DNA of 63,806 nucleotides, counting the filler. It is 8 parts of 8 records of this genome, joined end to end, with 100 filler letters (N's around TTAATTAATTAA, not from the genome) between each part and the next. Parts side by side here need not be neighbours in the genome. Positions count along the whole stretch, not along the records: positions 8,264 to 15,111 come from SRR31147125_97367; positions 15,212 to 25,030 come from SRR31147125_97407; 6 more parts are not named here. One strand, written 5' to 3'. The notes below the pieces were generated by a model. That model saw only the letters and a program-made list of their open reading frames with translations. It was not told where the DNA came from and ran no database searches. Below, piece after piece: positions 8,769 through 54,075 of this stretch; the stretch's first letter is position 1; each line of letters begins with the position of its first letter. A program made the translations under genes and the position numbers.

Positions 8769-11700
8769 TCATGTATTGGGTCTGAAATCACCCAGGATAG
8801 CATACAACGACGGCACCACCAACAGCACCAGCACAGTTGAGGCCAGAAGCCCGAACACGATGGAGGTGGCCAGCGGAATCAGAATCTGCGCCTGCATGCT
8901 CTGCTCGGCCAACAGCGGCAACAATCCCATGATGGTGGTCACGGAGGTGAGCAGCACCGCCCGGAATCGCTCCCGGCTGGCAAACGTGGCAGCGGTCACT
9001 GCATCTTCTCCTCGCTCCATGTGGATTTTGATGAAATTCACCAACAAAATGGAGTCGTTCACCACAATCCCCGCCAGAGACACAAACCCCATGATGCTGG
9101 GCATGGAGAGGGTCAACCCCATGAAGATGTGCCCCCACACCACGCCGATGAATGCAAAAGGAATGGTGATCATCACCACCATGGGTTCGATGTAGGATTT
9201 GAACTGAAAGCTCAGGATGCAGAACACGCCGAAAATACCGATCAAAAGCGCCTTTAACATCCCCCCCATGGATTCCCTGGTCTCCTTGGCTTCCCCTTCG
9301 GTAAGGACCGTCACACCTGGAAATTGTTCATGAAGTTCCGGCAGAAATCGTTGCTTCGTGTCGGTGATGATCTGGGCGGCATTGGCAAACCGGGTATCCA
9401 CATCACCGGTGACGGTGACCGTCCGCAGGGCATCGATTCGGTTGATGCCGGCATAGCCCCGGCTCTCTTCCAGGGTGGCCACGGCAGCCAGCGGTACCTT
9501 TTCCCCATTGGGCCCCAGAACACGGAAGTTTTCCAACGAAGAGACACTGTTTCGATCTGCCTTGGCAATGCGCACATTCACCTCGTAGGACTCATCTCCC
9601 ACCAGAATGTCGCTGGCGGTACTGCCGTAAAAGGCCGCTCGAAGCTGAGAGGCGATACTCCGGGCATTGAATCCTCTGGCTCTTGCCCCGGGTTTTAGTC
9701 GGACTTGAATTTCCGGTTTTCCCGGTCTCAAGTCATCTGAGAGATCCATCACCCCGTCATAGGCATAGAGCCAGTTGATCAGCCGGGTGGAGGCGAGCTT
9801 CAGATCATCGAAATTATCGCCCTGAAGCCGAATTTCAATGGGAAGCCCTCCCGGTCCGATACTCGGTTCTTTATAGGCGATGTTGATGCAGTCGGGCACA
9901 TCCCCCACCAGCTCCCGCCAGCGGGCTTTCACCTCGTCAAGCACCGTGGTGCGCTCTTCGGCGCTCAAAAGGTCCAAGGAGACCGTGGCCACATGGGGGC
10001 CGCTCTCTCCGGCATCGGCATTGGTATTGAAGATGGCGGAGATATTCTGAATGAGATCCACTCCACCGGGCTGTTTCGACGTTTCCTCCCGATTGATCTG
10101 CTGTGCCGCCTTCACGATGCGATCCACCACCTGTTCGGTGCGGGTCAGAGGCGTCCCCTGGGGAAGCAGAATCCGGGCCATGAGCACATCGCCGTCAGTG
10201 TCCGGGAATGCTTTGATCTTGAGATGGCCCCCGGCGATCATGGCGATGGAGAGGATAAAGACAAAGATGACCATCCCCGAAAAGAGATATCGCCAATTCA
10301 CCACTAGGTCCACAACACGCCCCAGCACCCGTTCCCGGATCCGGATGATCACCGTGTCCATCATCCGGCTGAAGCGCCCTTTGGAGAGGCCGCCGGTCTG
10401 GCCGCCCTGCCCTTCCCTATTTTCTTTATCCCTGTGGCTGAGGGAGTGATAAAGATGGTTGGGCAGAATGCAAAAGGCCTCCACCAGACTGACCGACAGG
10501 GTGAGGATCAGCACCACGGGAATGGCGTAAAGCACCTTACCGATGTCTCCGCTCATGGAGAGAGCCAGTGCACCGAAGATGAAAAGCGTGGTCAAATAGG
10601 ATGAAAAAATACCGGCAGCCACTTCATTGATGCCGTCCACCACGGCATCGAAGGCTTTTTTTCCTTTTTCCAGATGAGCCGCAATGTTTTCTGCAATGAC
10701 GATGGCATCATCCATCAGAAGTCCCAGACCGATGAGAAGCCCGACCATGGAGAGCATGTTGAGGGAGAAATCGATCTGTTTCATGAAAAAGAAGGTGAGA
10801 AAGAATGAGACCGGCAGCCCCATGGTGACCCAGAAAGAGAAGCGAAACGGAAAGAAACAGAGCAACGCGATAAAAACGAGAATGAGCCCTTCGATGCCGT
10901 TCATGGTGAGCATTTCCAGACGATCCCGGACCACCTTGGAGATATTTTGGGTAATGACGAATGAGACATCCGGAGGGGCCTGGAGCCGCTCTTTCTCGAG
11001 AAATTCTTTGACCGCCTCCAGGATCCGCAGGGCATCCTCAGCCTTTGTCTTGTTGATCTGGAGCATTCCGGCCCGTTTCCCATTGAAGTAGATTTTGTTC
11101 TCTTCATCGATATATTGATCGGAGATTCGGGCAATGTCTCCCAACCGGACTTCGGCGCCGTCTTTTCCCGATGCGATCACCAGCTTTTCCAGCTCCCGCA
11201 TACTGCGGCGTTCTTCGGCAAAGCGGATCAGAATGTTATTCTCCCTTGTCTCCAGACTTCCCAACGGCATGTCCAGACTTTGGGCCGTGATGATGGATTG
11301 AATGTCGGAGATGGAGAGCCCCAGGCGCATCATCTGATAGAAGGGAATTTCAATGAGAAATTCGTGATCGGAAAAGCCGAGCAGCTCTACCTGAGAGACG
11401 AGATCCAGTTGCTTCAAGCGATCTTTCAGGGATTCGCAGTAGAGTTTGAGATGAAGATCGCTCATGGGGCCGGTGACCGCCACGGAGACCACCTGATCGG
11501 TACGGTTGATGCGCTTGATGATCAGATCTTCCACCTCATCGGGAAAATCGCTGACGGCCTCCACATCGGTCTTGATGTCGTTGAAGAACTCCATCACATC
11601 TTCACCTTCCACCATCTCCACCACCACGGTGGCTTGGTTTTCCCGGGCCGTACTCTCGATGCGGTCGATATGGTTCACCTCTTCCAGGGCATCCTCGATG

Positions 11701-11909
11701 CGGCGACATACCGCCGACTCCACATCTTCAGCCGTGGCACCGGGATAAACGGCCGATATCTGTACGGCATCCACGGAGAAGTCCGGGAAGGTCTCCCGAC
11801 GGAGATCTTTTACCGTCATGATACCCAGGGCAATGAAGAGCAGCATCAAGAGATTGGATGCCGTGGGATGGCCGCAAAGATAGGCAATGCCGTTTTTGAT
11901 GCTTGTCAT
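8769..11909 (-). CDS. RND efflux permease (AcrB/AcrD/AcrF family)
   Basis: 1046 aa; GLLMDDAIVIAENI, GIVVNDSIL and RFRAVLLTSVTT motifs. Confidence 0.95.
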   Translation of the reverse strand: MTSIKNGIAYLCGHPTASNLLMLLFIALGIMTVKDLRRETFPDFSVDAVQISAVYPGATAEDVESAVCRRIEDALEEVNHIDRIESTARENQATVVVEMVEGEDVMEFFNDIKTDVEAVSDFPDEVEDLIIKRINRTDQVVSVAVTGPMSDLHLKLYCESLKDRLKQLDLVSQVELLGFSDHEFLIEIPFYQMMRLGLSISDIQSIITAQSLDMPLGSLETRENNILIRFAEERRSMRELEKLVIASGKDGAEVRLGDIARISDQYIDEENKIYFNGKRAGMLQINKTKAEDALRILEAVKEFLEKERLQAPPDVSFVITQNISKVVRDRLEMLTMNGIEGLILVFIALLCFFPFRFSFWVTMGLPVSFFLTFFFMKQIDFSLNMLSMVGLLIGLGLLMDDAIVIAENIAAHLEKGKKAFDAVVDGINEVAAGIFSSYLTTLFIFGALALSMSGDIGKVLYAIPVVLILTLSVSLVEAFCILPNHLYHSLSHRDKENREGQGGQTGGLSKGRFSRMMDTVIIRIRERVLGRVVDLVVNWRYLFSGMVIFVFILSIAMIAGGHLKIKAFPDTDGDVLMARILLPQGTPLTRTEQVVDRIVKAAQQINREETSKQPGGVDLIQNISAIFNTNADAGESGPHVATVSLDLLSAEERTTVLDEVKARWRELVGDVPDCINIAYKEPSIGPGGLPIEIRLQGDNFDDLKLASTRLINWLYAYDGVMDLSDDLRPGKPEIQVRLKPGARARGFNARSIASQLRAAFYGSTASDILVGDESYEVNVRIAKADRNSVSSLENFRVLGPNGEKVPLAAVATLEESRGYAGINRIDALRTVTVTGDVDTRFANAAQIITDTKQRFLPELHEQFPGVTVLTEGEAKETRESMGGMLKALLIGIFGVFCILSFQFKSYIEPMVVMITIPFAFIGVVWGHIFMGLTLSMPSIMGFVSLAGIVVNDSILLVNFIKIHMERGEDAVTAATFASRERFRAVLLTSVTTIMGLLPLLAEQSMQAQILIPLATSIVFGLLASTVLVLLVVPSLYAILGDFRPNT

Positions 11910-11911
11910 CT

Positions 11912-13390
11912 TCAGCTCTCCTCCATTTCCGTACGATGGGTGGCCGCATCTTGGAGACGCTTGGCCGTTTCATCATCCTGCACCGGTTTTAGAAGCATTC
12001 CTTCAATGGCCGGCACAAGATCGGTCAGTATCAGCCTCTCACCGGGCTCGACAATCGTTCCGGTAGCTCCGGTACCGTCATTGCGACCGATTGCGTCGGT
12101 TTCTCCGTCAAAGGATTTAGAACCGTTGCGTTGCCCCGCCCCTGAATCGGAATTCGATCCCGGATCCAGGATCGCCAGATCTTCCATGATCCAGGCGATC
12201 CTCACCGGCTTGATCTTCAAGCGATTGTCCTTTCCGGCAATATAGATGCGCCCCTCATGAACGGCGGTGGCCGGTACGACAATCTGATCCGACAGCATGC
12301 GTCCCCTCAGCTCCACCTCCACGTACATATTGGTAAGAAGGGGCGGGCGTTTTCCGGGGATGACATTGCCGTAGGGCTCGTCCACTGTCACGTAAATGGT
12401 GACGGCCCCGGTGGTCATGTCCATGGATTCGCTGGTGCGGGAGAAACGCCCTTCCCACGTGACCACATTGTAGTTGATGGGAAGCCGAAGCAGGGCCGTG
12501 ATGCCGATGGCTTTTCTCAGGGTCTCCATGTTCATCTCTCCAATCAAGACGGCGCGGGACATCCTGGGGAGCAGGGTCATGAAGGTGCTGGGGGGAAGTT
12601 GCACCGGAACTTCGGCACTGTGGATACTCTCGGCTTTGAGAAGCAAGCTGCCCACAGCCGCGTATTGATTGAGCTCGACATTGACTTCGGAGAGGCGGCA
12701 GTCAAAAGGGGCGATGATTTCGGTCTTTGCCACATCCAGCTGACGCTCCGTCACGGTGAGTTCGCCGGAGTCCTTCTGTGCCAGAAGGGCGCGTCGCTGG
12801 GCCGGGATGAGGTTCAGGGTGTTTTGCAGATTGTTGACCGTGGTTTGTTGTGAGAGAAACTGCTTTTCTTCGCTCTCCACTTCCGATTCCGAGAGATATC
12901 CCTTGTGGAAAAGTCCCCGTTTTCGTTTCAGTTCCTGAGCGGAAATATCCAGGGATTTCTTTTCGATCTCAAGTAGGCGTCGGGTGTTGGCCCTGGATTG
13001 CTCCAGCTCCTTGAGCTGGGCATCGATACTCATCACATCGGCCCGTCCTTTTGACTCGGCAAGGCCGTAGGTCGCCGTGTCGATGCGAAGCAGACGCGCC
13101 CCTTTTTTGAAGAAGTGGCCTCTTTTGAGGCTGTTGTGAACCTCCACCACTTTACCGCTCACCTCGGAGATGGCCTCCCAGGTTTGTGACGGCTCCACAT
13201 AGCCATAAGTGATGACTCGGGGGATCAGGTCGATTTTCTCAAGGGGGATGACCCGAACGGTATGCATTCGCTCTTTGGCTTCTAAACGAACCGGGGCCTG
13301 CTTATTCTTTTTCATCTGGGCAAAGAGCATCACCCCGCATATAATCGGGACAATGATCAGCAGTTTTTTCAAAATCCCTGCACGTTTCAT
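11912..13390 (-). CDS. RND periplasmic adaptor (membrane fusion protein)
   Basis: N-terminal TM, lipoyl halves (SEVSGKV; IIAPFDC), long coiled coil; lies between tolC and the RND gene. Confidence 0.9.
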   Translation of the reverse strand: MKRAGILKKLLIIVPIICGVMLFAQMKKNKQAPVRLEAKERMHTVRVIPLEKIDLIPRVITYGYVEPSQTWEAISEVSGKVVEVHNSLKRGHFFKKGARLLRIDTATYGLAESKGRADVMSIDAQLKELEQSRANTRRLLEIEKKSLDISAQELKRKRGLFHKGYLSESEVESEEKQFLSQQTTVNNLQNTLNLIPAQRRALLAQKDSGELTVTERQLDVAKTEIIAPFDCRLSEVNVELNQYAAVGSLLLKAESIHSAEVPVQLPPSTFMTLLPRMSRAVLIGEMNMETLRKAIGITALLRLPINYNVVTWEGRFSRTSESMDMTTGAVTIYVTVDEPYGNVIPGKRPPLLTNMYVEVELRGRMLSDQIVVPATAVHEGRIYIAGKDNRLKIKPVRIAWIMEDLAILDPGSNSDSGAGQRNGSKSFDGETDAIGRNDGTGATGTIVEPGERLILTDLVPAIEGMLLKPVQDDETAKRLQDAATHRTEMEES

Positions 13391-13418: not shown

Positions 13419-14945
13419 TTATTTATCGACCATTGATGTCGACGTCAATTCAATGTCGTTGACTTCCAAGGTATTTCCCACGGCCTGATGGAGCGAGATC
13501 AAAGCGGTCTGGCAGGCAATGAGGGCATCCACCTCCCGCACTCTGGCATCGGTGAGATCCCGCTGATAGAGCAGCACGTTGTAGCTGGTGGACAGTCCGT
13601 TTCTGAACTTCACCTGCTCGGCATCCAAGGACTCTTCGGCATAGGTGCTGGCGGTCTGTGCCGTCTCATAGCTCTTGACCGCCGCCTTTAAATCCCGAAG
13701 GGCCGTTCTCACATCGAGGACGATTTGTGAACGGACAGCATCCCGGCTGATCTCTCGTTGTCGTTTGGAGAGCCTTGCCGCGGCAAGGTTTGCCTTCTCT
13801 CCCCTAAATCCCCATGGAAATTTCAAGGTGAGGCCCACAGAGCCGTAATAGTAGTTTTCCAAATCTCCGGCATAGGTCTCGTCGTTATCGGGGTGGCCGT
13901 CGTTAATGCCCACCGCCGCCTCCACCGTCAGATCCGGTTTTGTCTGATTCTCGTAATAAACCACATCCACGTCAGCCGATTCAATATCAATACCGGCAGT
14001 CTGATGATCGGTGCGAAGGGTCAATGCCTGATCGATCAATTGCGCCTCATCAAACATCTCTTTGCCCATGGAGGGAACGGCAGGCAGCGTCTCACAGGAA
14101 ACCGTCGTCCCCGGCTTTGCCTCTCCGTAAATGTAGTTGAGCAGGGTATCTGCGGTGTTGTGTACGTCATTTTGCGCCGTGATGATTTCCGCCTCCCGAG
14201 ACGCCACCTCCGATCGCGCCTGAAGGATGTCCAGACGGGCGGCACTGCCCATTCTCACCTTCTCTTCCACCTCTTTGATGAAACGCCGGGCAAGGGCCAA
14301 CGATTTTTCATATACGGTCAGGGATTCCAGAGCGCTGTAGTAACTCCAGTAGAGGGTCTGGGCCTGGGCAATGGTATCCATTACCGACTGGGTCAGCTCG
14401 ATTTCCGATTTTTGGAATTGATGCGCCGCCAGGGTTACATTCCGAAGATTCACCTCCCGACCTTTGTTTTTCATCAACGGATGGCTGACGGAAGCCGTGG
14501 TCTGCACATAGCTGCCGCCGACATCACCGCTTGAGTCGGTTTCGGAATCGCTTTCTGCTGCCGTAAGGCTGACGGAAAAGGATGTGCCGGTTTCCATCTT
14601 CTTGGTGACGGATGCTTCGGTAGCCAATTGCAGGGTGCTGCTGTCATCGGGTTCATCCCAACTTTCCTGATCTTTGGTGGTTCCCGACACGGAGATTTGA
14701 GGATCGAACGCTGAAGCGGCTGTGTGGATGCTCTCCTTTGCCGTCAACGGTGTCAGGCGGGAGACCTTCAGCGCATGATTGTTCGCCAGGGCCGCACGCA
14801 TCACCGTCTGAAGATCCAACTTCAGTGCGTCTTGGGCTTGGGATTCCGATGCAGTGGAGGGAATGGGGGATAAAGTGATTAAGAAGAGTGATGCTCCAAT
14901 GAGCGCTGGTGTGATAAAATTGAGTTTGAACTGCCTTTTCTTCAT
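13419..14945 (-). CDS. TolC-family outer membrane efflux protein
   Basis: Signal peptide, ALANNHAL, KFRNGLSTSYNVL, helical repeats; heads the RND operon. Confidence 0.9.
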   Translation of the reverse strand: MKKRQFKLNFITPALIGASLFLITLSPIPSTASESQAQDALKLDLQTVMRAALANNHALKVSRLTPLTAKESIHTAASAFDPQISVSGTTKDQESWDEPDDSSTLQLATEASVTKKMETGTSFSVSLTAAESDSETDSSGDVGGSYVQTTASVSHPLMKNKGREVNLRNVTLAAHQFQKSEIELTQSVMDTIAQAQTLYWSYYSALESLTVYEKSLALARRFIKEVEEKVRMGSAARLDILQARSEVASREAEIITAQNDVHNTADTLLNYIYGEAKPGTTVSCETLPAVPSMGKEMFDEAQLIDQALTLRTDHQTAGIDIESADVDVVYYENQTKPDLTVEAAVGINDGHPDNDETYAGDLENYYYGSVGLTLKFPWGFRGEKANLAAARLSKRQREISRDAVRSQIVLDVRTALRDLKAAVKSYETAQTASTYAEESLDAEQVKFRNGLSTSYNVLLYQRDLTDARVREVDALIACQTALISLHQAVGNTLEVNDIELTSTSMVDK

Positions 14946-15259
14946 CGTATGCCATCCATTTTATTGATTTTTTAAAAATGTTTAAACACCGAAAAAATGC
15001 CATTGATCTGCCCCCTTCACATATCCTCAAACCGATTTTTCTGCAATGGCTTTATGGGAGATAACCAATTTTTACTTTGACCAAGTCGTATGCCCTTCTC
15101 TTCTCATTTTTNNNNNNNNNNNNNNNNNNNNNNNNNNNNNNNNNNNNNNNNNNNNTTAATTAATTAANNNNNNNNNNNNNNNNNNNNNNNNNNNNNNNNN
15201 NNNNNNNNNNNAAAAAAAAGGCGTCACACACCACCATCAAGAAACATGGCAAGGCCACA

Positions 15260-18200
15260 CACCACAAATGAAGCAGCGGTTGGCAATATCGTCTTCAATG
15301 CTTTGCTTCTTCTCTCGCAGTTCTTTGGAACCGACTCTGTGTCAAGATACTTCCCATCCATGCGGCAAGAGACGTACCGGCAAAACTGTCAATAATGATT
15401 CCAAAGATGATCTAAGGCAATGGAATCGATGACTCTTCTTCATATGCACACACACACACACGTACATTCAACAGGATCACGATCACAATGACGAAGAACG
15501 AAAGATCAAACAGGACCCGAACGAAAAAATCGGAATCAGCCCAAGACGCCGGCTGCACAACATCGCCCAAACCACCCCCACTTCGCAGACTGAGAGGCAT
15601 ATGGGATAAGTGATAGAATTCGTGAGCAGGTCCACATCACGCACCCATAGTTCAGTGTATGAACCAAACACATGGGCATGCTTGCACACAGGGGTTCATC
15701 TTCACGCACAAACTTATCTCGAAAGAAAAGAAACGTGGCAATCGAATACAGGTAGATGATAATCACCCCCAGAATTCCCTGTGCCGCGTTTTACATCTTT
15801 CAAACAAGCTGGGAACGAGGCGACGTACCGTGAGAAGGATTGAACGAATGTTACGTGTTACGGATTGAATGACATAGGACAGAATGGGAAAACTGAAAGG
15901 ACGTGGGCCAGGACACTAAACACCCCCTCACACACCGGAACACAACATCCAAGAGAAGAAATGCGAACAGAAAAGGACCACGAGGCCACAGAGTAATCCC
16001 CAGGAAAGCCAGAAGTAGATACAACGTATTGAAAAGGATAACGCGTTTGCGAATCAGGAAGACAAAGGACCACAGGAAAAAGGATAAGTTGTGCGGGATG
16101 TCTTGAAAGGGCCGCTGACAGTTCCCTCGCCCTCATCAGAATCCATGAATGGACTCTTTCACGCGTACATTGACATGCTTGCGCCACTCTCGTCGCAAGA
16201 GTAAAGGACCAAAGGTTACAAGATACAGGAGAAGGCTGATGCATGTTGTAAGGGCTTGGACACTTCCCAACAGGATGATAGCAATGCGTGTTCCCACAGG
16301 TACATCGGGCATCTCCATGGCGTGTGTGTCACTGGGCACACAACCATCAAAACGAGCGCATGGGAAGGAGATAACGCACGGATTCGTCACAAAGGAACAC
16401 AAAAGGAGGACGTTAATGGATACGACAAGAAGAAGGGAGGCATTCTTGATAATTGTCTCATTTTCGGTCAGGGAACGAAGCCACTGGGCAGACCTCAGTC
16501 AAGCAGGAGGCGGACAACCACGTAAGACAGCAGCGTACTTTGTGCTTGTGGACGCGTTTTTGATGAAGCATTTCGTTCATCAACTGTTCATTGCGACTGA
16601 AGAAATCCTCTATCTTTGCTTGTTGGCTCTCACGATTCACATCCCACAACAATGATTTCTTTGATTCCTCTGTGAGAAATTGACAGAGGGATGGAATCTG
16701 AAAGTACATCTACAGACAGCGTAACGTGACGTGCAATTGTCCTTGCGTACAACGTACTCGTTCCAATCGTTCACTGCGAACAATCTCGACGCGTCCCACA
16801 TCTCTTGCAAATGCTTCATACAAGGATGAACTCTCCAGAACACCCCGAAGCTGGAGAGGAAGGTGAAAAGAGGATGAATGCAGTAGGATCTCCTCACCTT
16901 GCCCTCAACGTCATAGTCAGAAAGAATGCGGATAAGAAAGAAATGAAGAAACCCAAGTTCCATGGCCGCTTCGCCTTCCTCCAAAAGACTATCAGTGGCT
17001 ACTATGTCGGACAGAGTATGATCCACAATCTCCGTCTTCCCACACATCAGCGACGGCATCAACAAGAAACACACCGGACAACCAACCAAGTTCTTGAAAT
17101 CAAGAGTAGCCACCATCCTTTTCGCAATGTTCGGGTCTGTTGCACCTTCGAGTAGGCTCAAGAGTGTCTTCAGGGCGCTCGACTGGGGCCATATGAGTCA
17201 CTTCCTTACGAAAAGCGAATACCCATCCATGCACCTTCAGACACCGCACGCTATCGGGATTACACTCCGAGAACGAAGTTTGGAGGAGAGAATTGGCACA
17301 TTCACACAATTTCGTCCGCGAGAGAGCCCACTGCATGCATGGTGCACGGTCACGTTCAATCCAGATGAACAGATCACTCTGGGGACAGCACCTGGTTTCC
17401 AACACAAGGACCTGTGTGGAAGAATGCATCATTAGGCAAACTGTGCGACCCAAGCCCAAACGGGTCCCACCTTGACAGTATTCCGTCAGTGTTTCAAAAA
17501 GTTGGATGGCCGTTTCAATGTTATCATCATCAATGTAACGCTCCACGGCTTCCAAATACAGTGTGGTTTTCGTGACAATGTCAAAGCACTTGAGCTGATT
17601 GGTCTGTGCGCGCAAGTAATCCTGAAGAGAGAGGGAAGGGCTGAGAGGTTGAACGAGCGGGAGAGCGAGACACACCTGCCATTGCAAATTGTGCCCCTCA
17701 CATAAAAGTTGAAGGAAGCGAAGAAGATTTTTGATACAACCCAATGCGTGAAGATCACTCATATCATCTTCATGTAGAGCAGCATCTCTGTGACGACAAG
17801 AATTGGTCATCTTAATCACACAGAACCCAGAACCCAGAACCCACGCACAAATGAAGATTGCCTGAGGACTGAAGACGTCGTGCCTTCTCCTGTCGTCGTT
17901 GGAGCAATTGCTTTCGCCCTTGAACCTCAGGGATCGAACGACGAAGGCGGTTGTTTACCTCTTCAAATAACTTCGCGTCTCGTGAGGATTGACACTTTTG
18001 GAGCATCGTACGCTGAGTATCGTGGTGAGGTACATGGTGCGCACACATACTGGTGGCGCACCTGAACTTGCGTGTTCCCGCCCCGTAGCATCTTAATACC
18101 CAGTTTAAGACCACTCGAAACCAGTGGATCTTTCCCAGAGCTGATAAGATGAACAACCTTTATGCCCGTGTGAGCAACAGGATCAAGAGAGATCTGAGAC

Positions 18201-21200
18201 ACGTACAAGTAGTGTCACGCCACTCTCGTCAAGTTGATTCTGCATGGCACACATATCTTTCTTGGGGGTGAGAGGAATAGCCCTCTCGAATATCCCAGCT
18301 ACATGAGTCATCAGTTCAATGTCCGATGTAACAGGGTTCCCTGCACTCCGTGTCAAGAGGAACCCGTCATACAGAAACATACATCAGGAGTTTCACAAGG
18401 GCACTCGTCTGCGGGTTGACTAATGTGCCGATCAGGGCTGTTTCCTCCTCGGGAAGCAAGATGCCCTTGGACCTGGTGGTCGCAATGTCAATGCCACATC
18501 AAACCAAGCCAGCAACGAGCAGCAACGTACACGCGCTTGGCGAAGAACTGTAATCGTCGCATTACCATTTGCCCCAAGGAGGACACAGTTGTGGCGGCAC
18601 GCATCCGCCATCGCATCCGCGGGTGTTGGAGATCCATAGATTCACATTTCTTCAAGATTTCTGCAGACTACACAGAAGCCATCACGAACACTTCCAAACT
18701 CATCAAAACAAACCTTGGACTTGAGTGTGATCCCTTGAATGTGCCGTCGATGCATAGTTTGAATACATCGACCCACTGCAGCCTCTTCTTCAAACGTCAA
18801 ATCGCGGTGTTCAAAGAGGTGCAGTAGACTGTCAAATAGTGCATTGGCAATATCAAGCTGATCCCTGGGCCGTGGAGTCACCATTTCCAGCGATACCACA
18901 ACCACATGCAAACACGCACGAGGTGGTGCGCTCAGGAATGTAGTGACTCTTGAAGAAATGCTCAAAGAAGGGAAGAGACGAACCAAACACAAGGCTCCAC
19001 GTATCCACTACCCCGGATGAGTCCCTGGGAGGAGAGTTGGGCTCAACAATACAGTACAATGTAATACAAACGCCTGCCGTTGCCGAATCGAAGTCCCTGA
19101 TGCGAGTTGAACATCCTTTGTCAACGCAGCAAGGCAGTCCCTTGTGGGGATCGGTTGAGATCATCATGACCGTAAGGCCCTTATAACGTACCACACGTTT
19201 CGATCAATCTCAACGTTCTTGATTTTGCGCTCGGTCTTGAGGTAGGCCTGTCGTCAATGGACTCAGAGGTGGCCTGAAACGGTCCCGAGGCGCGTACCTC
19301 ATGCAAGAAACGTACATATGGAGCCTTGACCAGCGGAATGACGTCGGGGTGGCAGATTGTGCATCGAACGTCGCTGAGGGAGAGCATGGCCTGACACTTG
19401 ATTTCTGCTTCATAGTTTTCACCCCAGCAGCATCGTGCCATTAGATCAATAAGGGTGACATGATAGTTGAGAAGGCCTTCGGGGTTCTTGAGGTGTTCTT
19501 CCTCCTTCATGAGCTCCAGCCTGGTGTTACCCTTACCCTAAGGAGCGCCGCACCACACACCCCACACCCACACACCCCACGCACATACCGTTTTCGAAAG
19601 CCATCCCGATCGTTGAACAGAAGCATGATGCTGTGCTGACGATCTCGCATCATCTTGATGACAATGGATTGATTTCGTCGCAATGGTCGTCCCTCAACGA
19701 ACACCACAGCCTAGAACGAGTGAATCCCAAGAGGCAGAAGGAGGTGACGTGACGAGGCACACCTCCAAAAACCCCAAGAAGCGAGGAAACTGTCCCTTTT
19801 CCACAATGAGATTGACAAAGTGATGAATGTTGTATTCAGTGATCTGGATGGAATTCCTGTGTCGGACGGACTGAAGGGATTGATCAGGAGGAAGGGCCGC
19901 ACCTGGGAACAAAGCTCGAAATTGTCACGAATACATGCAGTAATAGTCTTCGCGGCTTGCAGATTCAACCCTGTCTGATTGATAAAGGACTCCAAATGGG
20001 AAAACATCACAACCTGGTTCTCAGAATTTCCCTCGCAGAACTATGACAATGAATCCATTCCTACTCGCCATCAAACCGAATACATACCCGTTTCAAAAAG
20101 CGTGGGCTTGTGCTAACACTTCAACAAGGGGGCCTTCTCGTGGAACTTCTCCACGGCGCATGAGCAGGCGCAGTCCTCCCATCACAACGCCATGTGCTCC
20201 TAAATTCCTCATGATTCGCTGGTTCTCATTCGAGGGCGTCTTGCCACGGGCATCTAGGAAGAAAGAGAATTCACTCACAGGCGCAGAGGGGTATGCTCAC
20301 GTCACAAACCCTCACAGCACAGATTCTTCAGTTCTATTAGGACACGCCTGGCTTCCTTCAGCTCCTCCTCATTCATAGATACGTGAAAGAGAGTGTGCAG
20401 GCGACGGATGTGGCCAATAACCGTCTCATAGACAGAGACTGCACCAGGCGTCGCGAGAATTTGCACCCTCTTAATCGCTTCGATTAGTTCTCTCCGTTGA
20501 CTGATGGATGTACGCCGTTACGCAACGCGTTCTGTAATGGCGAGGGGCTCACCTGTAATACCGGACGAGAACTCGGAACGCCCTGATCGCAAGAGATGAG
20601 CTTGAGATATCTACAAGGCTTAGAAAGATGGTTTGAAAGTCCCACGAGCTGAAATCAAGCTCGTCCTTGCACAGAACATCGCCGTAGGAATTCGGGGTCA
20701 CTCTATCCAAGTCGATATAGGCGCGGTCGACTCCCTGCTCCTAATGCATACACGGGTGGGTCCTCCTCCTCATTCACACGCACACACGGTTCAGGGGCGT
20801 ACCACAATTCCAAGTTCTCGCTTGAAACGCAACAGAGTTCGAAATAGTCTCGCCTCGAGTTGATGATTAAACAACAGGTGCAAGATCTGACAGATCTCCT
20901 CCTTGCACTCCTTAAGGGCTGCTGGTCAGGGTATCTACTTTTTTTTTCAAACAACACGTTACCATTTCCACAAGCGTCTGGGGACTGGGTTCTCCGCTTC
21001 TGGTTCGCTCACTCAGCCCATCTTGATAGAAAAAAATGTTAGCTTTGTTTGGCAAGCTGGCATCGTTCGCACATAGGCTATTCTGTCGACGAGCGCCGAT
21101 ATGGCCCATCAAGGGTATCAGAAGCTCTTGGAGTTCTTGCACGCCATGAAAGATCCCAAAGGTGATCATTTCACGACAAAGATTCAGAATCCCAAGGGTA

Positions 21201-24200
21201 AATGCCTTCTGCTGTGGGCTTGGCGCGTGATTACCGGAAAGTACACGAAGTTCCTTGACCAAGAACTCCTGAATGAACCACGTGAGCCGTGGTATCAGGA
21301 ACAAGGGCCACGTATACCTTGAGAGGTTCATAGTCATGAGTTGAGTATTCATTCTTGTCTTCCTCAAATGAAACAGAGGCCCCAAGATCCTCCCATAGCT
21401 GAAACAAAGTGGGCAATGGGCACACACACACACACACACACCCGTGTGTATTGCACTGTTGTAGGTGTGCCCGCGTCGATGTACATGTGTCGCATGGCCC
21501 TGCAGTATGCCGCACGAATAGAAGGTGGAAGGGTATGATCAACAATGCAGCAAAGAAGATGTTCATATGTGAAGGTTGGGGAGAGAATCTCAAGACAAAC
21601 GCGATTGCGACCCTTCCACCACAAGGATTGAGGTGAAGGCAGGAGGGGGAGACAGGGACGTACCACACAAAGAGAGGCAACGAGGTCCACTGACCGCTCC
21701 CAGAACTTCTGAAGTTCGAGAGGAACAGTCTTGAAGAACGCAGACAGATGAACCCACTTCCCCGCGTCCACTTTCTTAATTTCTACGTGGTTATCCACAA
21801 ACTGAATCGATCGATGAAATAAGCAACCCTCCTTCCCCATCAGAATACACACGCACACGAGATTGAAGCATCAATTCCGGGTGATCCACAAATAACTGCC
21901 TACAGACAAACTACACACAGCACTGAGTCCGAGCAGCCGTATCTCCTTCTCCCCTTCGACAGACCTCTTGATTACCTGGGATGCCTACTGAATCGAATTT
22001 CACAATTGCTGAGAGGAGATTGAGATAGCTACGTGTGTGTTCTGTCTGTCAACACCCTCATCAAAGAACCAAACTCGGTGCGCACCGCGCCATCATGCCT
22101 CGTCGACGCAACAAATCGATGAAGAAATAGATATGTTCGTGGGTAATCGTGTCCAATATCATATGATTATCGCGGAATACCTCCAAGAGAGTGTCCACAA
22201 TTGACAAATTGTATCCCAACTACAGGAAACACCCGTCACGGCACACAAAGCATCACACACCCACATACCTGGCCTTGCATGAAATGCAAGTACTTGGAGA
22301 GTCGGGTGGCATTCTTCCGGTTCTTGCGAACCATTGCGCGAAGAAGTCGATATACCAGTTTCAGAAGATTGTGGACCAGTTCGCCTTTGGGTGTTCGCAA
22401 ACTGGTGATGTCCCATCCCCCACGCTCAAAGGGGTTGCGAAGGATGGCAATCAGAACTTCTACAACCTGGACAGAGCGCACGAGTCGGCCTCCAAACTAA
22501 GCTTACGAAATCCGGGAACGTACTCCTTGCTCCCTCAAAACGTTCTGACGTTTCTTAAGGGGAAGCCCTTCCCGTTTGAAAGGGTCGTGTTCTGTATCCA
22601 CGGAGCAGAACAGGACAAGATCCCCCAGAACGGATGTCACCCTCTTGACATCGAGAAACGGGACAACATCAGGATGGATCATCTGTAAAGGAACTATAAG
22701 CATGCACACCCTCCACACCTACAAGGCGTACCTTCTCAGCAAAAGGACGCAGAATAGACATAACCCCTGCAATGTAAAGCAGATCCTCCACCTCTGAGCG
22801 ATCGACTTGTGTTACTCCAAAGACGTCTGCATCGTGAGGCACAGAAATACACGACAACTCCATGTAACAACCAATCAGATAACCACGTGCCGCATGGAGT
22901 CCTACCATACCTGTTGAAATTTGACACGCCGTGTCATTGTGCTTCCCAATACCGGTAGATTCTCTCCTTCCGTCTCGTTTGCGTGGAGCCAGAATCCAGA
23001 CACGTTATGTTGAAGACGCACAAAGGACTCACTGGGAACATTTGGCTGGTGGAGGAAAGCGTGCGTTACAACATCAAAAAAAAAGGTCAATGGATTGCTC
23101 GCATTGCACACCGAGTCCACGGGCCCAATCGGATGAACTGAGAAGAGTGTTTCCTTGAATCGAAAGTCTGGGGTTGTCCCCACGGGCATTACCTTGGTTC
23201 CCATCTCCAAATCGTCTGCCAGGACACAACATCATACCCAGGAAAAAGCTTGCTTGCCTACCTTGAACATCGGAGGGATCCACAGTCAAGTAGCGATTTG
23301 TAGCGAGATTTCGAAGGCGATACAAGTGAGTCCACGACGCCAAACCTCCTCGTTCCACGGGATCGAGTTCCACTAACCACAACGTAGCAGAGGAAGGTTG
23401 TACGGTTCTCGCTCGTGAAGAAGCCGCAAGCCGCAAGCACACGGATGCTCCTACTCCTATCAATGCATAGACACATCGATCACATCCACGCACCTCCTTC
23501 ATTGCTGCCTTGTTCAGTTTCTCCGCTGTTGCAAATGCTCTCATAGGTGAGATAACCTTCTGCTTCTTTGTGAAAGAGTCTCACCACATCGCCACTCTGT
23601 ATTGCGCCGCAGGTTACGAGAGAATCGATCCCGTTCCATCCCCTCCCCTGCAGACCTTCAGAAAGGCTTCTTCCTCGCATGTGTACGGAGCAAATGGTGT
23701 AATACGCCAACTGGCTTGGGTAGCCGATCCATTGACCTCTCGTCGTCCGTCGTGGAAGGCAGTGCATGACAAGTGCAAGTACATGTTTGTAAACTTCTTA
23801 CTCATTAAGAAGACCTGATGGGGAGTGGTCGGTCACACGGGACAACACGAAACGGAATCCAACAAACAGCACACCTCATCCCCCTTTTGGATCTTGTCTC
23901 CTTCCTGACGCATCTTGTAGCGTGGGATGACAACAAAGGCGGATCCCTCCGTGCCATCGGGTTCCAAAGTTACGCGCAAGCAATCTCGTTCCAATGCCGC
24001 CGTGTCCTTTAATGTGATTGTTAAGAACTTGTTGCTTTTTTCATGAAGTAACTGGAGTCCACAAGGGATGAGACACCAGAGCCATTACACTCCCACCCAC
24101 GAGGACGTACCTGGATCGTTTGACCGAATGTTACCTCCTTTCCTGCAACACGAAGAAATTCAGCCTGATTCATCTCACGTTCTTGGACATCGTCGGCCTG

Positions 24201-24783
24201 GATACCGTCATTTCATTAAGAGAAAGGAACAGGCCTGCCCAACGCCACACACGTGAAGGTCTTCCATGGAATCTTCCTCGCCCTGATCCGATTGGAGAGC
24301 ACCGATTCGAGTTTGGTGCATGGTTTTCTCCAGTGCTTCCTTGTAGGCGATCTGGGCGTCATAGCTGTATTGGGGCGTCACACGAAAGACACAATCTACA
24401 CGAAAGACTCAGTTTGGCTGGGCAACACCCAACAACGCCCAACAACGCACCAGAGAAGCAGGGAGGTTGATTTGCATCGACAAGACGAGGAACAACACAT
24501 CGGGTATCCGCGAAGCTGTGTAAAAGTGACTCCCAATAGGGTGGTTGTCATCCATCCACACCCACCCTTCCGAGGTGACATATCCAGCTCCTTCGTCGGT
24601 GAACAGAGACACCTTGTCTCCGTACTCAAGGTACAGAACCTGCGTTGTTGCACTCAGACGTTCCAGGAACACAATGACCTCACCTCAGCGATGGGATTTG
24701 TGGGTTCTGCCGTCCACGATTGTGTACCTCTCATCCGCATCTTCACCCCTGCTAGCACGGTGTACCATGCTGCCGAGGACATT
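15260..24783 (-). CDS. ITPR: Eukaryotic inositol 1,4,5-trisphosphate receptor-type Ca2+ release channel; multi-exon, 3' end truncated
   Basis: Spliced exons give IP3R motifs in the expected order: YLEYGDKVSLF...DTRCVV...DCVFRVTPQYSY; GDVVRLFHKE; LWLVE...LYRLRNLATNRYL (MIR); KRQNVLREQG; EIKCQAMLSL; RFLQLLCEGHN; TLTEYCQG; LRSGGGLGD; FDLSFFVIVIVILLNIIFGIIIDSFAELREKK...RCFIC. GT-AG introns checked by hand. The start ATG at 24783 is tentative. Confidence 0.95.
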
Positions 24784-24800
24784 GTGTAGGGCATATGATG

Positions 24801-24890
24801 GGTCTTGATTGAGTTTGATTGAGTTTGATTGAGTTTGATTGTACTTGATTGGGTTTGATTGCACTTGATTGCACTTGATTGTACTTGATT
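24801..24890. repeat. 10-bp minisatellite, 9 units, consensus GNNYTTGATT
   Basis: GGTCTTGATT, GAGTTTGATT x3, GTACTTGATT, GGGTTTGATT, GCACTTGATT x2, GTACTTGATT. Confidence 0.95.
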
Positions 24891-25130
24891 CAAAGTGGCG
24901 CGAACCATACATACCATTCCCATTCCCCCTTCAACAGAAATGGAGGGCGACCTCATCGTGCCAGAGGGATGTGTGAACAAAGGACAACAAGGAAAGAGGG
25001 CACGGGTAGAGGCTGGGCCACCCACTACATNNNNNNNNNNNNNNNNNNNNNNNNNNNNNNNNNNNNNNNNNNNNTTAATTAATTAANNNNNNNNNNNNNN
25101 NNNNNNNNNNNNNNNNNNNNNNNNNNNNNN

Positions 25131-25983
25131 GAAGTCTCAGGATGCCGACAGCCTGACCGGCGGTCTGACCCGAGTAACAGTGTACAACAACCTGCTTATC
25201 CATGGGGATTACAGACTCAAACTGTTCCTGCATTCCTTTAGCCCAGGGGATAAGAGCAGCACCTTCAATATGTCCTGCATCATAAGCATCCTGCTGTCTG
25301 ATGGAGAGGACAAATATATCTTCTTCGGCATCCAGAGCTTCCTTGACCTTGCTCGCGGGCCAGATGTTGCTTCCCTTTTCAGGGATGGCGTTGAAGTAGG
25401 CTTCGACGGCGGCCTTGATGGCGGGGTCATATTTAACACCGGAAGCATCGGGGGCCATGGTTACGGCAGTTTCTTCGTAGGCTTCGTAGCCTTCAACCTT
25501 GGAAACACCCAGTTTGTACCCGTACCGGATGGAGCTGGCTTCAATACCGGCAACATTAAGAAGTGCAACCGTCTGACCGGCGGTCTGACCGGAGTAGCAG
25601 GTTACGTATACGGGAACATCATCGGGAAGCCAGTTAAGGGCGTCGGCGACTTCTGGACCCCAGTAGGCGTTTACGGAGCCTTTAATGTGTCCGGCGGCGT
25701 AGTCTTCAGCTTTTCTGATGTCGAGGATGAACATATCCTCACCGGCATCCATCTTGGCAAAAACGTCTTCGGGTTTGATGATCCTGTTTCCGGGAAAATC
25801 GGCGAAGTAGGCCAGGGCGGCTTCTTCAACGGGATCGACGGTTACTGCAGGTGCAGCCTCTTCGGCCTTTTCGGCGGGAGCGGCGGCTGCAGGAGCCGCT
25901 TCTTCCTTTGAACATCCGGTGAGCATAAGCCCGGGGATGAGGAAGAGAACAAGCAAAATCGAAATAACACTGAGTTTTCTCAT
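25131..25983 (-). CDS. Multi-rhodanese-domain lipoprotein (3'-truncated)
   Basis: Lipobox LMLTGC, Ala-rich tether, two rhodanese domains each with a CYSGQTA active-site loop. Confidence 0.85.
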
Positions 25984-26083: not shown

Positions 26084-27007
26084 TTAAGATGCGTCTTCCA
26101 CCTGGATCTGAATCTGACCGGGCACTTCCGGTTTATAGACAGGCAGTGAGGAATCGGCACTCCATTCAAGCCAGGCACCGTCATAGATCTTCAGATTACG
26201 GTATCCGGCATTGTAGAGGGCGGTATAGGTCTGGGCGGCTCGGATGGAGCTTTTACAGAACATGATAACCGTGTCCTCGGGCATGATATCGTTCTCTTTG
26301 TAGAGAATACGGATATGCTGAACAGGTTTGTACGTGCCATCGAGAAAATTATTTTCCAGGTATTCAATATGAATTGCCCCGGGGATGGTTCCCGCGTTGT
26401 ACTCCTCATCGCTACGGACATCAATAATAACCAGGTCATCGGACGGATTGTTAATCCAGTTGAGGATCTCGTTTTTGCCCGTAATCAGCTCAGGGTTCGA
26501 AGGCTGGGGGACGTAGGAGGCTTTGGAAGCACTCATGCTCCCGGTTGTGATTTCAGAACCGAGCTCTTTTAAGGCGGAAAGACCGCCTGAGACAACTTTG
26601 ATTTCACCCGTGTGACCGTAGATCATCAAGGTCCACGCCAATCTTCCTGAATCCATATTGTTGTTGTCATCGTAGATGATCAGATTGGAATCGGCTGTGA
26701 TCCCGGCGTTTCCGGCTGCTTCGGCGACAACTTCGCCGGGAGCCAGAGAGTTGGCCACTGGAACCTTTACGGTAATATGGGCCCTTTGTATGTTGACCGC
26801 TCCGGCAAGGTGCTCTTTCTCGTAGGAGGTGGTTTTCTGGGCGTCCAGAATAACCCAACTGCCTTCTCCGGCGAGTTTAAGAGCTTCTTTGGCCGAGACG
26901 ATAAGGGTATCGGAATCGGCGTACTTACCGTTGCCGCAGCCCGGCAGTACCAGGACAGCGGCAATCACTAAAACAGTCAACCAGATAGAAGCTGTTTTCA
27001 TTTTCAT
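26084..27007 (-). CDS. Tandem-domain sulfurtransferase (TST/SseA-like) lipoprotein
   Basis: Lipobox LVLPGC; GTIPGA; active loop CKSSIRA; rhodanese C-terminal signature YDGAWLEW. Confidence 0.9.
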   Translation of the reverse strand: MKMKTASIWLTVLVIAAVLVLPGCGNGKYADSDTLIVSAKEALKLAGEGSWVILDAQKTTSYEKEHLAGAVNIQRAHITVKVPVANSLAPGEVVAEAAGNAGITADSNLIIYDDNNNMDSGRLAWTLMIYGHTGEIKVVSGGLSALKELGSEITTGSMSASKASYVPQPSNPELITGKNEILNWINNPSDDLVIIDVRSDEEYNAGTIPGAIHIEYLENNFLDGTYKPVQHIRILYKENDIMPEDTVIMFCKSSIRAAQTYTALYNAGYRNLKIYDGAWLEWSADSSLPVYKPEVPGQIQIQVEDAS

Positions 27008-27024: not shown

Positions 27025-28272
27025 TTAATGTTCACAGCTGCAGTCTTCGATGCCGAGGGCTTCGCAGACTTTCTTGCAGGTGAAACTGTCTTCAAAGGTT
27101 TTAACAATCTCTCCGTCTTTGATGACGGCGAGGGTGGGTACACGGTGGATGTGCATCCTGTTAGAAATACCTTTCGATTTGTATACATCGACTCTTGTCA
27201 CCTGGAACTTTCCAGCGGCCTGTCTCTCGATCTCGTCGATATCACAGAGGTGCTCACGACAGGCTTCTTCAGAAGCATCGTAAACGAATACCACACCGTC
27301 TTTGCCCAGGATCTGGTTATTATAAACCTCGATTTCGGCAATGTATCTTTCAGCGGCAACACCGGCAACGGCGCCGTCACCGACAGCAGTAGCAACCTGT
27401 CGAAGGATTTTAGCTGTCACGTCACCAGCTGCGTATACACCTTCAACATTTGTTTCCATGTTTACATTGACGGGAATATATCCTTTGGGGCCAACGATAA
27501 CATGATCTTCGAAGATTTCGGTGTTCGGGATATAACCGATGAACTCAAAACATGTGGGGGTTACGACGGGAATTTCTTCCTTGGTATTCACATTTTCAAG
27601 AACAACCCTTTCCAGGTGATCTGTTCCTTCGAACCGTCTGACCATAGAGTTCCAGATGAATTCCATCTTGGGGTTAGAGAGGGCTTCCGCTTTGGCGATT
27701 TCGTTGCAATCCATTTTTCCCTCATCGTGGATGACGGAAACGTAAACCTTATTAGCGAACTTGGTCAGGAACATTCCTTCTTCAATCGCAGCATCACCCG
27801 AACCGATGATAAGAACATCCTTGCCGCTGTTTGCTGCGGCGTCACAGGTGGCGCAGAAGGAGATACCTTTATCAAAAAGGAATCCTTCCTCGTTTTCCGC
27901 ACCCGTTGTCCTGGGGCGTCCGCCGGAAGCGATGATGACCGCTTTGGCTTTGTAAATATTCCGGAAGGTTTCCACAATTTTTGTGTCTCCGGTGAAATCG
28001 ACGGTTTTCACATCGGTTCCCTTGAACTTGACACCAAACTTCTTGGCCTGAGCCTGGAACAGGTTCATCAGGTCAAGACCGCTGGTTCCTTCGGGAAAAC
28101 CGGGAAAGTTTTCGATCTCATTGGTATAGGTGGCAAGACCTCCTACCAATGCTTTTTCTATCAGCAAGGTATTAAGTCTTGCTCGTCCGCAGTAAATTCC
28201 GGCGGTGAGACCTGCAACCCCTCCACCGATGATCACTACATCATATTCTTCAATCTTCTTTTCTCTAGCCAT
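27025..28272 (-). CDS. trxB: Thioredoxin reductase-like flavoprotein with C-terminal thioredoxin-like domain
   Basis: GGGVAG FAD motif, CATC, GSGDAA, GVYAAGD. Likely start is MAREKK at 28272; about 100-aa extension ending CSCEH. Confidence 0.85.
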   Translation of the reverse strand: MAREKKIEEYDVVIIGGGVAGLTAGIYCGRARLNTLLIEKALVGGLATYTNEIENFPGFPEGTSGLDLMNLFQAQAKKFGVKFKGTDVKTVDFTGDTKIVETFRNIYKAKAVIIASGGRPRTTGAENEEGFLFDKGISFCATCDAAANSGKDVLIIGSGDAAIEEGMFLTKFANKVYVSVIHDEGKMDCNEIAKAEALSNPKMEFIWNSMVRRFEGTDHLERVVLENVNTKEEIPVVTPTCFEFIGYIPNTEIFEDHVIVGPKGYIPVNVNMETNVEGVYAAGDVTAKILRQVATAVGDGAVAGVAAERYIAEIEVYNNQILGKDGVVFVYDASEEACREHLCDIDEIERQAAGKFQVTRVDVYKSKGISNRMHIHRVPTLAVIKDGEIVKTFEDSFTCKKVCEALGIEDCSCEH

Positions 28273-28288
28273 TATCTTTCCTTCGTTC

Positions 28289-28822
28289 CTACATGAAGAA
28301 TTTAACCAGGAGTTTGCTTCCCACGTAGGCGCCAAGAAAGAGGAAGACCGCATAGACCCAGCCCGAAACGGACAGAGAAGCGATTCCACTGAAAAGAGCG
28401 CCGATGTTACAGCCGAATCCGATTCTGGCGCCGTAACCCATGAGTAATCCGCCAAGAACGGCGGCAACAATCTGTTTTCCTGATTTGATCTTCTTAATCT
28501 TGAACTGAGATGCCATCAGTGTGGCAAAGAGAGCTCCCAAAATCAGCCCTACATTCCTCATGGTGCCCGGGTGGCGGAGGAATCCGGCATCAAGGGTAGC
28601 CTGAGCTCCGGGAGAGGAGAAGTAGTACCATTTGTCTACGCTTCCACCCACGAGCTCGTAAAGCCAGGCTCCCCAGTTCGCCAGTACTCCGGATACACCC
28701 CAGGGGCTGCCGGTGGAGGCAAGGGTAAATATCTGAAAAATGGAAAGGAGAACCGCACCTGTAACATAGGGCCAGGCGTCCTTAAACCATTTCAGATAAA
28801 ATTTGTTTTTTTTCAGCTCCAT
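28289..28822 (-). CDS. YeeE/YedE sulfur-compound transporter, C-terminal half
   Basis: PWGVS and GGLLMGYGARIGFGCNIG motifs. Confidence 0.9.
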   Translation of the reverse strand: MELKKNKFYLKWFKDAWPYVTGAVLLSIFQIFTLASTGSPWGVSGVLANWGAWLYELVGGSVDKWYYFSSPGAQATLDAGFLRHPGTMRNVGLILGALFATLMASQFKIKKIKSGKQIVAAVLGGLLMGYGARIGFGCNIGALFSGIASLSVSGWVYAVFLFLGAYVGSKLLVKFFM

Positions 28823-42800: not shown

Positions 42801-43106
42801 NNNNNNNNNNNNNNNNNNNNNNNNNNNNNNNNNNNNNNNNNNNNTTAATTAATTAANNNNNNNNNNNNNNNNNNNNNNNNNNNNNNNNNNNNNNNNNNNN
42901 GTCAGCATGTTACGGAGACTTTCTAATAAACTTGATCTGATTTACTATTTTTAATTTCCAATGAAAAATGGTAAATCAATCCAAATTTTCACTATTCAAC
43001 GGCGCTTTGCAAGCCTTGTGATCAATTCCCAAACAGGGGGGCTCCCATGGTATCCGCAGATTGCCTCCATGAACTGATTTAACATACTGATGGAAGATGC
43101 ATCCAC

Positions 43107-52035: not shown

Positions 52036-52095
52036 TGATATTTATTTGATTGACCCTGGCAGCACTCTTTCAAAGGCAAAGGTTTACATTTAATA

Positions 52096-53952: not shown

Positions 53953-54075
53953 AACGGCCATGTCAGGCCACCTGANNNNNNNNNNNNNNNNNNNNNNNNN
54001 NNNNNNNNNNNNNNNNNNNTTAATTAATTAANNNNNNNNNNNNNNNNNNNNNNNNNNNNNNNNNNNNNNNNNNNN

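Follow-up and report, generated by a model that had tools for sequence, protein, structure and literature searches.

The window analysed here, a stretch of 63,806 bases, is a chain of eight contigs joined by spacers of the form N44 + TTAATTAATTAA + N44. The contig at positions 15212-25030 carries, on the minus strand, most of a eukaryotic gene for an inositol 1,4,5-trisphosphate (IP3) receptor (IP3R). It comprises 9819 bases without a single N, has a G+C content of 0.496 and is bounded by N spacers on both sides; the span of 15211-25030 put forward in the initial annotation coincides with this one complete contig. Its longest stop-to-stop open reading frame (ORF) has 284 aa, as compared to 448-2747 aa in the other seven contigs. 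In those, ORFs of at least 100 aa span 91-100% of the length, and 15212-25030 is the only contig without a long ORF. Spacer boundaries and ORF lengths together mark 15212-25030 as a whole eukaryotic contig that was binned with bacterial ones.

Five of the 24 stop-to-stop ORFs on the minus strand match Pfam families typical of IP3Rs and ryanodine receptors (RyRs), and they do so in the N- to C-terminal order expected for these proteins. Ins145_P3_rec (PF08709) is found at 23833-24084 (E 6.8e-20, 71.6 bits with a cut-off of 23), MIR (PF02815) at 23074-23580 (E 8.2e-6; scores of 26.3 and 28.1 bits versus a cut-off of 25.6), RIH (PF01365) at 22236-22496 (E 1.8e-9, 37.9 bits versus a cut-off of 22.3) and again at 22061-22219 (E 0.0024), and RIH_assoc (PF08454) at 17100-17954 (E 6.3e-19). 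When exact exon translations are used instead, nine out of 46 match these families and the profile positions are consecutive across introns, as is illustrated by RIH_assoc, for which positions 5-26 and 27-76 flank one intron. One further exon yields a chance-level match to the unrelated family Peptidase_M56. SPRY or RyR-repeat domains were found by Pfam neither among the 24 ORFs nor among the 46 exons. In tblastn searches, first nine of nine and then 21 of 21 IP3R-family references gave colinear chains along the contig, with chain scores between 237 and 896, the best being that of Balamuthia. In the PDB, all 13 distinct sequences matched by the RIH_assoc ORF are IP3R chains, and exon 49 with its 41 residues aligns end to end with residues 2538-2578 of human IP3R1 (E 5.5e-6 as opposed to 1.3e-3 for RyRs). 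Judged by its sequence, the gene product belongs to the IP3R branch of the IP3R/RyR superfamily. The initial annotation had taken the many short ORFs as exon pieces of one minus-strand IP3R gene, and this is borne out by the order of the Pfam domains, by the 21 tblastn chains and by the spliced model of 51 exons described below. Two other origins were considered and discarded: chance ORFs in a bacterial contig are ruled out by the scores, and a giant virus or another intron-less source by the introns.

The spliced gene model was built stepwise with a dynamic-programming parser. Its splice-site weight matrices were trained on the gene itself, and 21 retrieved IP3R-family proteins served to make a family profile of 2455 positions. 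Other routes were abandoned: a gene finder relying on codon usage only read through introns and chose wrong frames, a low intron penalty in the parser led to over-split exons, and a homology bonus derived from gapped tblastn matches favoured read-through. The modelled coding region (15258..24740, minus strand) consists of 51 exons and 50 introns and is open at its 3' end. Exons range from 20 to 315 nucleotides (nt) with a median of 134 and introns from 37 to 95 nt with a median of 52.5, and all 50 introns of the model are of the GT-AG type. As assembled, the model encodes 2256 aa free of stops and reaches 1975.4 bits as one domain over positions 29-2228 of the 2455-position profile; with an X placed at a T-run treated below, it encodes 2267 aa and reaches 1992.3 bits. 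Both sizes fall into the IP3R range of 2200-3800 aa. The donor hexamer GTRYGY is present in 34 of the 50 introns and occurs 78 times on the gene strand versus 16 times on the opposite strand, while acceptors are CAG (32), TAG (12), GAG (4) or AAG (2). Retention of 47 of the introns would cause a frameshift or a stop. Among the three that are in frame and free of stops, keeping 21663-21613 costs 22.9 bits and keeping 17675-17622 costs 19.3 bits against the profile. (CA)n/(TG)n and related microsatellites are located within introns at 15447-15461, 21421-21441 and 19551-19589, and Logan contigs break at two of them.

All exons are given here on the minus strand. Exons 2-7 (23656..24639) encode the N-terminal suppressor-type domain Ins145_P3_rec, and exon 6 alone matches PF08709 with an E-value of 1.4e-17 (64.1 bits, profile positions 106-165). 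They are followed by exons 8-10 (22911..23596) with the MIR domain, spread over these three successive exons as PF02815 positions 5-25, 42-85 and 134-157, and with the first half of the IP3-pocket equivalent (23442-23407). Exons 12-14 (22086..22682) contain the first RIH domain, again on successive exons (PF01365, E 2.5e-8 and 0.0027, positions 52-113 and 122-158), together with the second half of the pocket (22556-22527 and 22331-22311). Part of a putative second RIH domain is assigned to exon 25 (19903..20040); this single exon scores 17.3 bits (PF01365, E 0.0035), which is below the curated cut-off, and the region is colinear with the family references. The RIH_assoc domain with the residues of the Ca2+ activation site resides on exons 37-38 (17471..17787). 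A 20-nt micro-exon encoding PCVGNQ is situated at 17392..17411; its omission by read-through of both flanking introns costs 41.3 profile bits, and all references whose aligned segment extends this far keep the motif. Exons 45-50 (15378..16483) make up the transmembrane channel region, as deduced from the alignment of exon 49 to IP3R1 and from the tblastn chains, and include the selectivity filter GGGLGD at 15579-15562. The transmembrane pore proposed in the initial annotation is thus recovered by exon 49 and the filter, while Pfam Ion_trans goes undetected on single exons. The last exon on the contig (15258..15334) ends in CFICG (15275-15261), the first cysteine pair of the C-terminal zinc finger. 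Behind it, only the start of a further intron is present (15212..15257; donor GTGTGT at 15262, score 9.6), as the contig stops 46 bases into this intron. Of the CFIC zinc finger noted earlier, the first cysteine pair is therefore seen and the rest would lie beyond the contig, along with the C-terminal domain, which amounts to about 227 of the 2455 profile positions. With this proviso, the description of the gene as near-complete stands: the profile is covered from position 29 to 2228, a single BLASTP alignment extends over 2479 columns and roughly the last 230 positions are lacking.

Three motifs quoted in the initial annotation, LCEGHN, LTEYCQG and SLLEG, were located: LLCEGHN lies at 17708-17688, TEYCQG at 17486-17410, split by an intron, and SLLEG within 17158-17135. 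In an alignment with residues 1870-1969 of human IP3R3 (6dqj_A), E and H in LLCEGHN coincide with E1882 and H1884, E and Q in TEYCQG with E1946 and Q1949, and the glutamates of the Ca2+ site are intact in this alignment as well as in our local alignment. Excerpts of PMC8930994 place these four residues and the main chain of T2581 in or beside the Ca2+ activation site, and according to a preprint (bioRxiv 10.1101/2022.03.07.482538) the exchange E1946Q abolishes agonist-evoked release. The equivalent of the Ca2+ ligand T2581 falls beyond the contig end. In the local alignment, the Ca2+-site positions and the E of LLSLLEG are kept by all references that are aligned there. This third glutamate we take to be a Ca2+ sensor.

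Only two public runs, which are from the same sample and study and are here termed X1 and X2, contain DNA of this contig, and neither of them is recorded as RNA. In X1 (915 M letters), pieces that are at least 99% alike cover 24 out of 30 bins of the contig and keep the introns. X2 is much smaller (22 M letters) and holds seven pieces, all of which fit the spliced form; six of the seven carry a total of eight joints that skip 48-59 bases, each with CT..AC on the plus strand and thus GT..AG on the gene strand. Of these joints, seven agree to the base with introns that had been predicted beforehand, namely 24198..24252 (55 nt, joint 24196>24252, cut +1), 24052..24110 (59 nt, joint 24051>24111), 22467..22523 (57 nt, joint 22464>22522, cut +2), 20254..20309 (56 nt, joint 20253>20310), 18013..18061 (49 nt, joint 18012>18062), 16710..16757 (48 nt, joint 16709>16758) and 16115..16168 (54 nt, joint 16114>16169), all on the minus strand. 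The eighth, a 49-nt intron with the donor GTACGT at 18158..18206 on the same strand (joint 18155>18205, cut +2), was absent from the first model; once it was added, the model scored 1975.4 bits against the profile instead of 1940.8. Since the spliced form is deeper in a run that is 40-fold smaller, and excision at GT..AG is exact, we infer that X2 is derived from RNA. Contigs that skip eight introns exactly at GT..AG indicate that the gene is spliced and most likely transcribed. The eukaryotic origin claimed at the outset is supported by the 50 short GT-AG introns of the model, eight of which are precisely removed in the second run, and splicing leaves no stop in the 2256 aa as assembled.

Relatives of the spliced product are distant. 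Among the retrieved proteins, the best BLASTP match is an unnamed metagenomic protein, P0172, with 35.2% identity over 2395 columns in a single alignment (1272 bits). It is followed by Balamuthia mandrillaris P0058, listed as 'Inositol 1,4,5-trisphosphate receptor type 1, variant 2' (32.2%, 2479 columns, 1194 bits, single alignment), and by Physarum polycephalum P0173 (EukProt P000121) with 32.6% in an alignment of three pieces, while animal IP3Rs are 26-29% identical. A search with the 284-aa RIH_assoc ORF against 1.84 billion cluster representatives gave 50 matches at E <=0.001, the best with 58% identity over about 90 aa, and none at E <=1e-30. A word-indexed search of longer proteins returned one match with 33% identity, exon 45 found no relative in a genome contig collection, and exon 28 found only three weak stretches in metagenome contigs (45-55% over 20-29 residues). 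Near-identity to an annotated gene was thus not encountered among the retrieved proteins, the best full-length value being 35%, and within the reach of the tools used the assignment to an as yet unnamed protist holds. IP3R homologues are present in many protist lineages and absent from land plants according to passages of PMC11085791, and their absence from land plants had also been stated in the initial annotation. Among the papers listed by our literature search on IP3R evolution there was no dedicated open one, and the distribution statement rests on PMC11085791.

A phylogenetic tree (LG+G4, quick search) was calculated from 2327 columns and 25 rows: the query and 24 of the 305 retrieved proteins, of which 14 are long non-animal proteins, nine are named animal IP3Rs and one is a metaclust row. 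The tree includes few protist lineages and no RyR outgroup. The query has a long branch (1.06) and groups as the sister of a 12-row clade formed by Balamuthia, Physarum and ten unnamed metagenomic proteins (support 98/100). Rigifila stands outside, and a ten-row animal clade (support 100) together with Platysulcus is placed on the other side. Signatures in the query itself are also of the non-animal type: the motif reads LCEGHN where animals have LCENHN, and the insertion that follows it in animals only is missing. The source would accordingly be a non-animal eukaryote, perhaps related to Amoebozoa, to which we attach no lineage name.

Taken together, we consider it highly probable (about 0.88) that the contig is nuclear DNA of a non-animal microbial eukaryote without lineage assignment, that it holds about 90% of an IP3R-family gene and that it was mis-binned with contigs of a Desulfobacteraceae-like bacterium. 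The eukaryotic contig would have been co-assembled and then binned with the bacterial ones. The spliceosomal introns, about 50 in number and very short (median about 52 nt), mostly have GTRYGY donors and YAG acceptors and would be removed from the transcript, as they are in the transcript-like contigs. By homology, the protein is predicted to form a tetrameric channel in an internal membrane that would conduct Ca2+. Ligands would bind at an N-terminal beta-trefoil/MIR region, regulation would fall to the armadillo-like RIH domains, and a conserved cytosolic site for activation by Ca2+ and a six-helix pore with the GGGLGD filter would complete the four parts of the protein. Established by the data are the identity of the gene, the order of its exons, eight introns and the conserved residues of the Ca2+ site and the pore; assembly into tetramers, membrane location, conductance and activation by Ca2+ and, above all, gating by IP3 are predictions.

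Several observations weigh against this reading or parts of it. For 42 of the 50 introns the evidence is the prediction itself, and the call of intron 17074-17030 is ambiguous, as its retention gains 3.0 bits. No library type is recorded for X2 (it is listed as 'DNA?'), so that its origin from RNA is inferred. Ion_trans is undetected by Pfam on single exons. As assembled, a one-base deficit in a T-run is bridged only by a 79-nt intron with the donor GTGTTA. The tree suffers from a simple model, sparse sampling, the missing RyR outgroup and long-branch and composition warnings that include the query. The gene start is likewise affected. The first conserved motif (24639-24601) lies in a frame that lacks an ATG and is closed by a stop at 24685-24687, so that an upstream exon is required, and a putative first coding exon with ATG at 24740 is modelled at 24684..24740 (minus strand). 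The splice scores of intron 1 (24683-24640) are low (0.6 and 2.0), further in-frame ATGs occur at 24782 and 24794, and no upstream in-frame stop is present on the contig. The start at 24740 is therefore weakly supported, plausible rather than proven. The state of the IP3-binding pocket bears on the function and not on the family.

The pocket was examined in a local MAFFT alignment with 15 references, in which IP3R1 numbering was mapped by residue pattern in platypus ITPR1. Excerpts of PMC13319452 name R265, R504, K508, R511, Y567, R568 and K569 as IP3-coordinating. Only four of the 11 positions considered are kept in the query, i.e. R265, R511, R568 and K569, and R504 is conservatively replaced by K. 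The remaining six are changed: K508 and Y567, both of which are N in the query, and T266, T267, G268 and R269, which presumably coordinate IP3 as well. IP3 gating is consequently not assured, a point that the initial annotation had not remarked on. It is possible, albeit less likely than not, that we are dealing with an IP3R-family channel that has a diverged pocket and would instead operate by Ca2+-induced Ca2+ release or respond to another ligand. With respect to position 508, K508Q is described to abolish IP3 binding in PMC13319452. Among the eight non-animal relatives aligned there, all except Platysulcus share the N at this position, the IP3-coordinating residues are likewise incompletely kept in the amoebozoan relatives, and the Ca2+ activation site is fully kept in the query. 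On the other hand, the four basic residues kept by the query are more than Balamuthia or P0172 have to offer at positions 567-569, the alignment of a loop region that is 30% identical is uncertain, and PDB searches with single pocket exons are of no use here, having returned zero, zero and two chance-level matches. Furthermore, responses to IP3 have been reported for divergent protist IP3Rs with partial pockets. Judged from the residues, the changes in the pocket weaken the case for gating by IP3 and not that for homology to the family, and activation by cytosolic Ca2+ would be better supported than IP3 binding.

A more far-reaching picture combines this pocket with the position in the tree. 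The source could be an uncultured, deep-branching eukaryote from a sulfate-reducing habitat, sister to or outside of the sampled Amoebozoa-type lineages, with an extremely intron-dense genome, in which about every 135 nt of coding sequence would be followed by a 52-nt intron, and a channel that lacks K508 and most IP3 contacts and would be gated by Ca2+ or otherwise. As a whole, this scenario is speculative, and we regard it as rather unlikely in all its parts.

An origin from a small animal of the meiofauna, e.g. a nematode or rotifer, instead of a protist has very little going for it. Sediment samples contain such animals, and very short introns are also found in some of them. Still, the nine named animal IP3Rs cluster tightly with the metaclust row (support 100, end branches of 0.04-0.37) to the exclusion of the query, identity to animal IP3Rs is lower than the 32-35% reached with amoebozoan-type proteins, and the LCEGHN motif without the animal-specific insertion is at odds with an animal source.

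The T-run mentioned above deserves attention with respect to gene integrity. On the minus strand, five T (A5 on the plus strand) at 20095-20099 produce a stop in the frame that is best supported by homology. The homology-supported exon starts at 20253 and would, with T6, continue to the consensus donor GTATGT at 20087. The open alternative is an intron at 20119-20041 with the poor donor GTGTTA, and the profile score is 17 bits higher when an X is put at the break. One X1 contig has exactly one extra A on the plus strand behind 20094, equivalent to T6 on the gene strand, although depth is as low as 2.3 there. As this contig carries the additional base, the deficit is most likely a homopolymer slip in the assembly of the window. 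A decaying pseudogene or a chimeric assembly of low quality, to which this deficit and the low coverage in the run that holds the contig (word depth 0-3.6) might point, is equally improbable as the animal source, because the additional base is present in another assembly of this sample, the 2256 codons are otherwise free of stops, spliced contigs exist for eight junctions, functional motifs are conserved, and all 25 X1 and all seven X2 contigs are at least 99% alike without any other letter differences.

Upstream of the modelled ATG, Tandem Repeats Finder detected a tandem repeat of a 10-mer in about 8.6 copies (24804..24890, no strand assigned), which is presumed to belong to the promoter or the 5' untranslated region. 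A 762-base X2 contig overlaps the contig only at 24929-25030, upstream of the gene, and extends 660 bases past its 5' side. With a depth of 26.7, the highest of all pieces, it may stem from an adjacent gene of this eukaryote that is more highly expressed.

The bacterial part of the window offers a few further clues. The contig at 8264-15111 encodes an RND efflux system with permease (8769-11909), adaptor (11912-13390) and TolC-like protein (13419-14945). The permease is 79-85% identical to that of Desulfamplus, Desulfobacterium and Desulfocicer, which identifies the bin as that of a Desulfobacteraceae-like sulfate reducer. The suggestion that the eukaryote lives with anaerobic bacteria is therefore supported as far as co-occurrence in the sample is concerned; the permease says nothing on the physiology of the eukaryote, and neither anaerobiosis nor an association of the two organisms follows from it. 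G+C contents across the eight contigs range from 0.486 to 0.610, which is wide for a single genome, and the bin may thus be mixed beyond the eukaryotic contig. The longest ORF of the window (2747 aa) is located in the contig 42901-53975. Two ORFs resembling tandem-rhodanese lipoproteins (25075-25983, a listed span that crosses the spacer, and 26084-27007) adjoin an ORF for a thioredoxin-reductase-like protein with an N-terminal extension (27025-28470), and together they may constitute a sulfur-handling cluster. An Rfam scan of the whole window matched no family, and hence no rRNA.

The contig plainly illustrates how eukaryotic DNA can hide in a bacterial bin. Prokaryotic gene callers would deliver dozens of meaningless ORFs for it, and contigs of this kind inflate counts of 'novel proteins' and distort genome-quality statistics. 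At the same time, it adds a divergent and nearly full-length member to the poorly sampled non-animal IP3R branch. This branch bears on the origin of IP3 gating, as the Ca2+ site and the pore are kept here and the IP3 pocket only partly. The dense introns of about 50 nt with their GTRYGY donors provide a handle for finding the rest of the organism's genome in the same sample. All this is useful for curation and for the sampling of non-animal IP3Rs and will not surprise the specialist: the gene is a divergent addition to a known family, ordinary in kind though found where it was not expected, and does not overturn current understanding.

Among known systems, the IP3R homologues of Balamuthia and Physarum and the metagenomic protein P0172 come closest. 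They share the domain order with the query over alignments of 2028-2479 columns, and common to all of them are LCEGHN, N at the position of K508, the absence of the animal insertion, GPC.xNQ and LLSLLEG. They differ from it in that identity is only 32-35%, in that the query branches outside their clade and in that R568 and K569 are present in the query and not in these homologues. Gene structure is another point of difference. In P0172 and several other relatives, the gene is one continuous ORF that nearly fills its contig (P0172, P0054, P0057 and P0010 with 2500-3800 aa, e.g. 3808 aa on 11.5 kb), whereas the query gene has about 50 introns. As several of the closest relatives are single ORFs, intron-less IP3R genes appear to be common in metagenomes. 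Animal IP3Rs (ITPR1-3; structures 6dqj, 7lhe and 3jav) resemble the query in architecture, Ca2+-site residues, filter, S6 region and CFICG, but are only 26-29% identical, form a separate clade and retain the pocket of which the query has six of 11 residues changed and one conservatively replaced; the protein of the query is also expected to be shorter, with about 2450-2500 aa as compared to about 2700 aa. RyRs, finally, have RIH, RIH_assoc and MIR domains, the type of pore filter and the Ca2+-site residues in common with the query, the latter as described in excerpts of PMC8930994. They deviate from it by SPRY and RyR-repeat domains, which are unseen in the query, and by twice its size, and the pore exon of the query is closer to that of IP3Rs.

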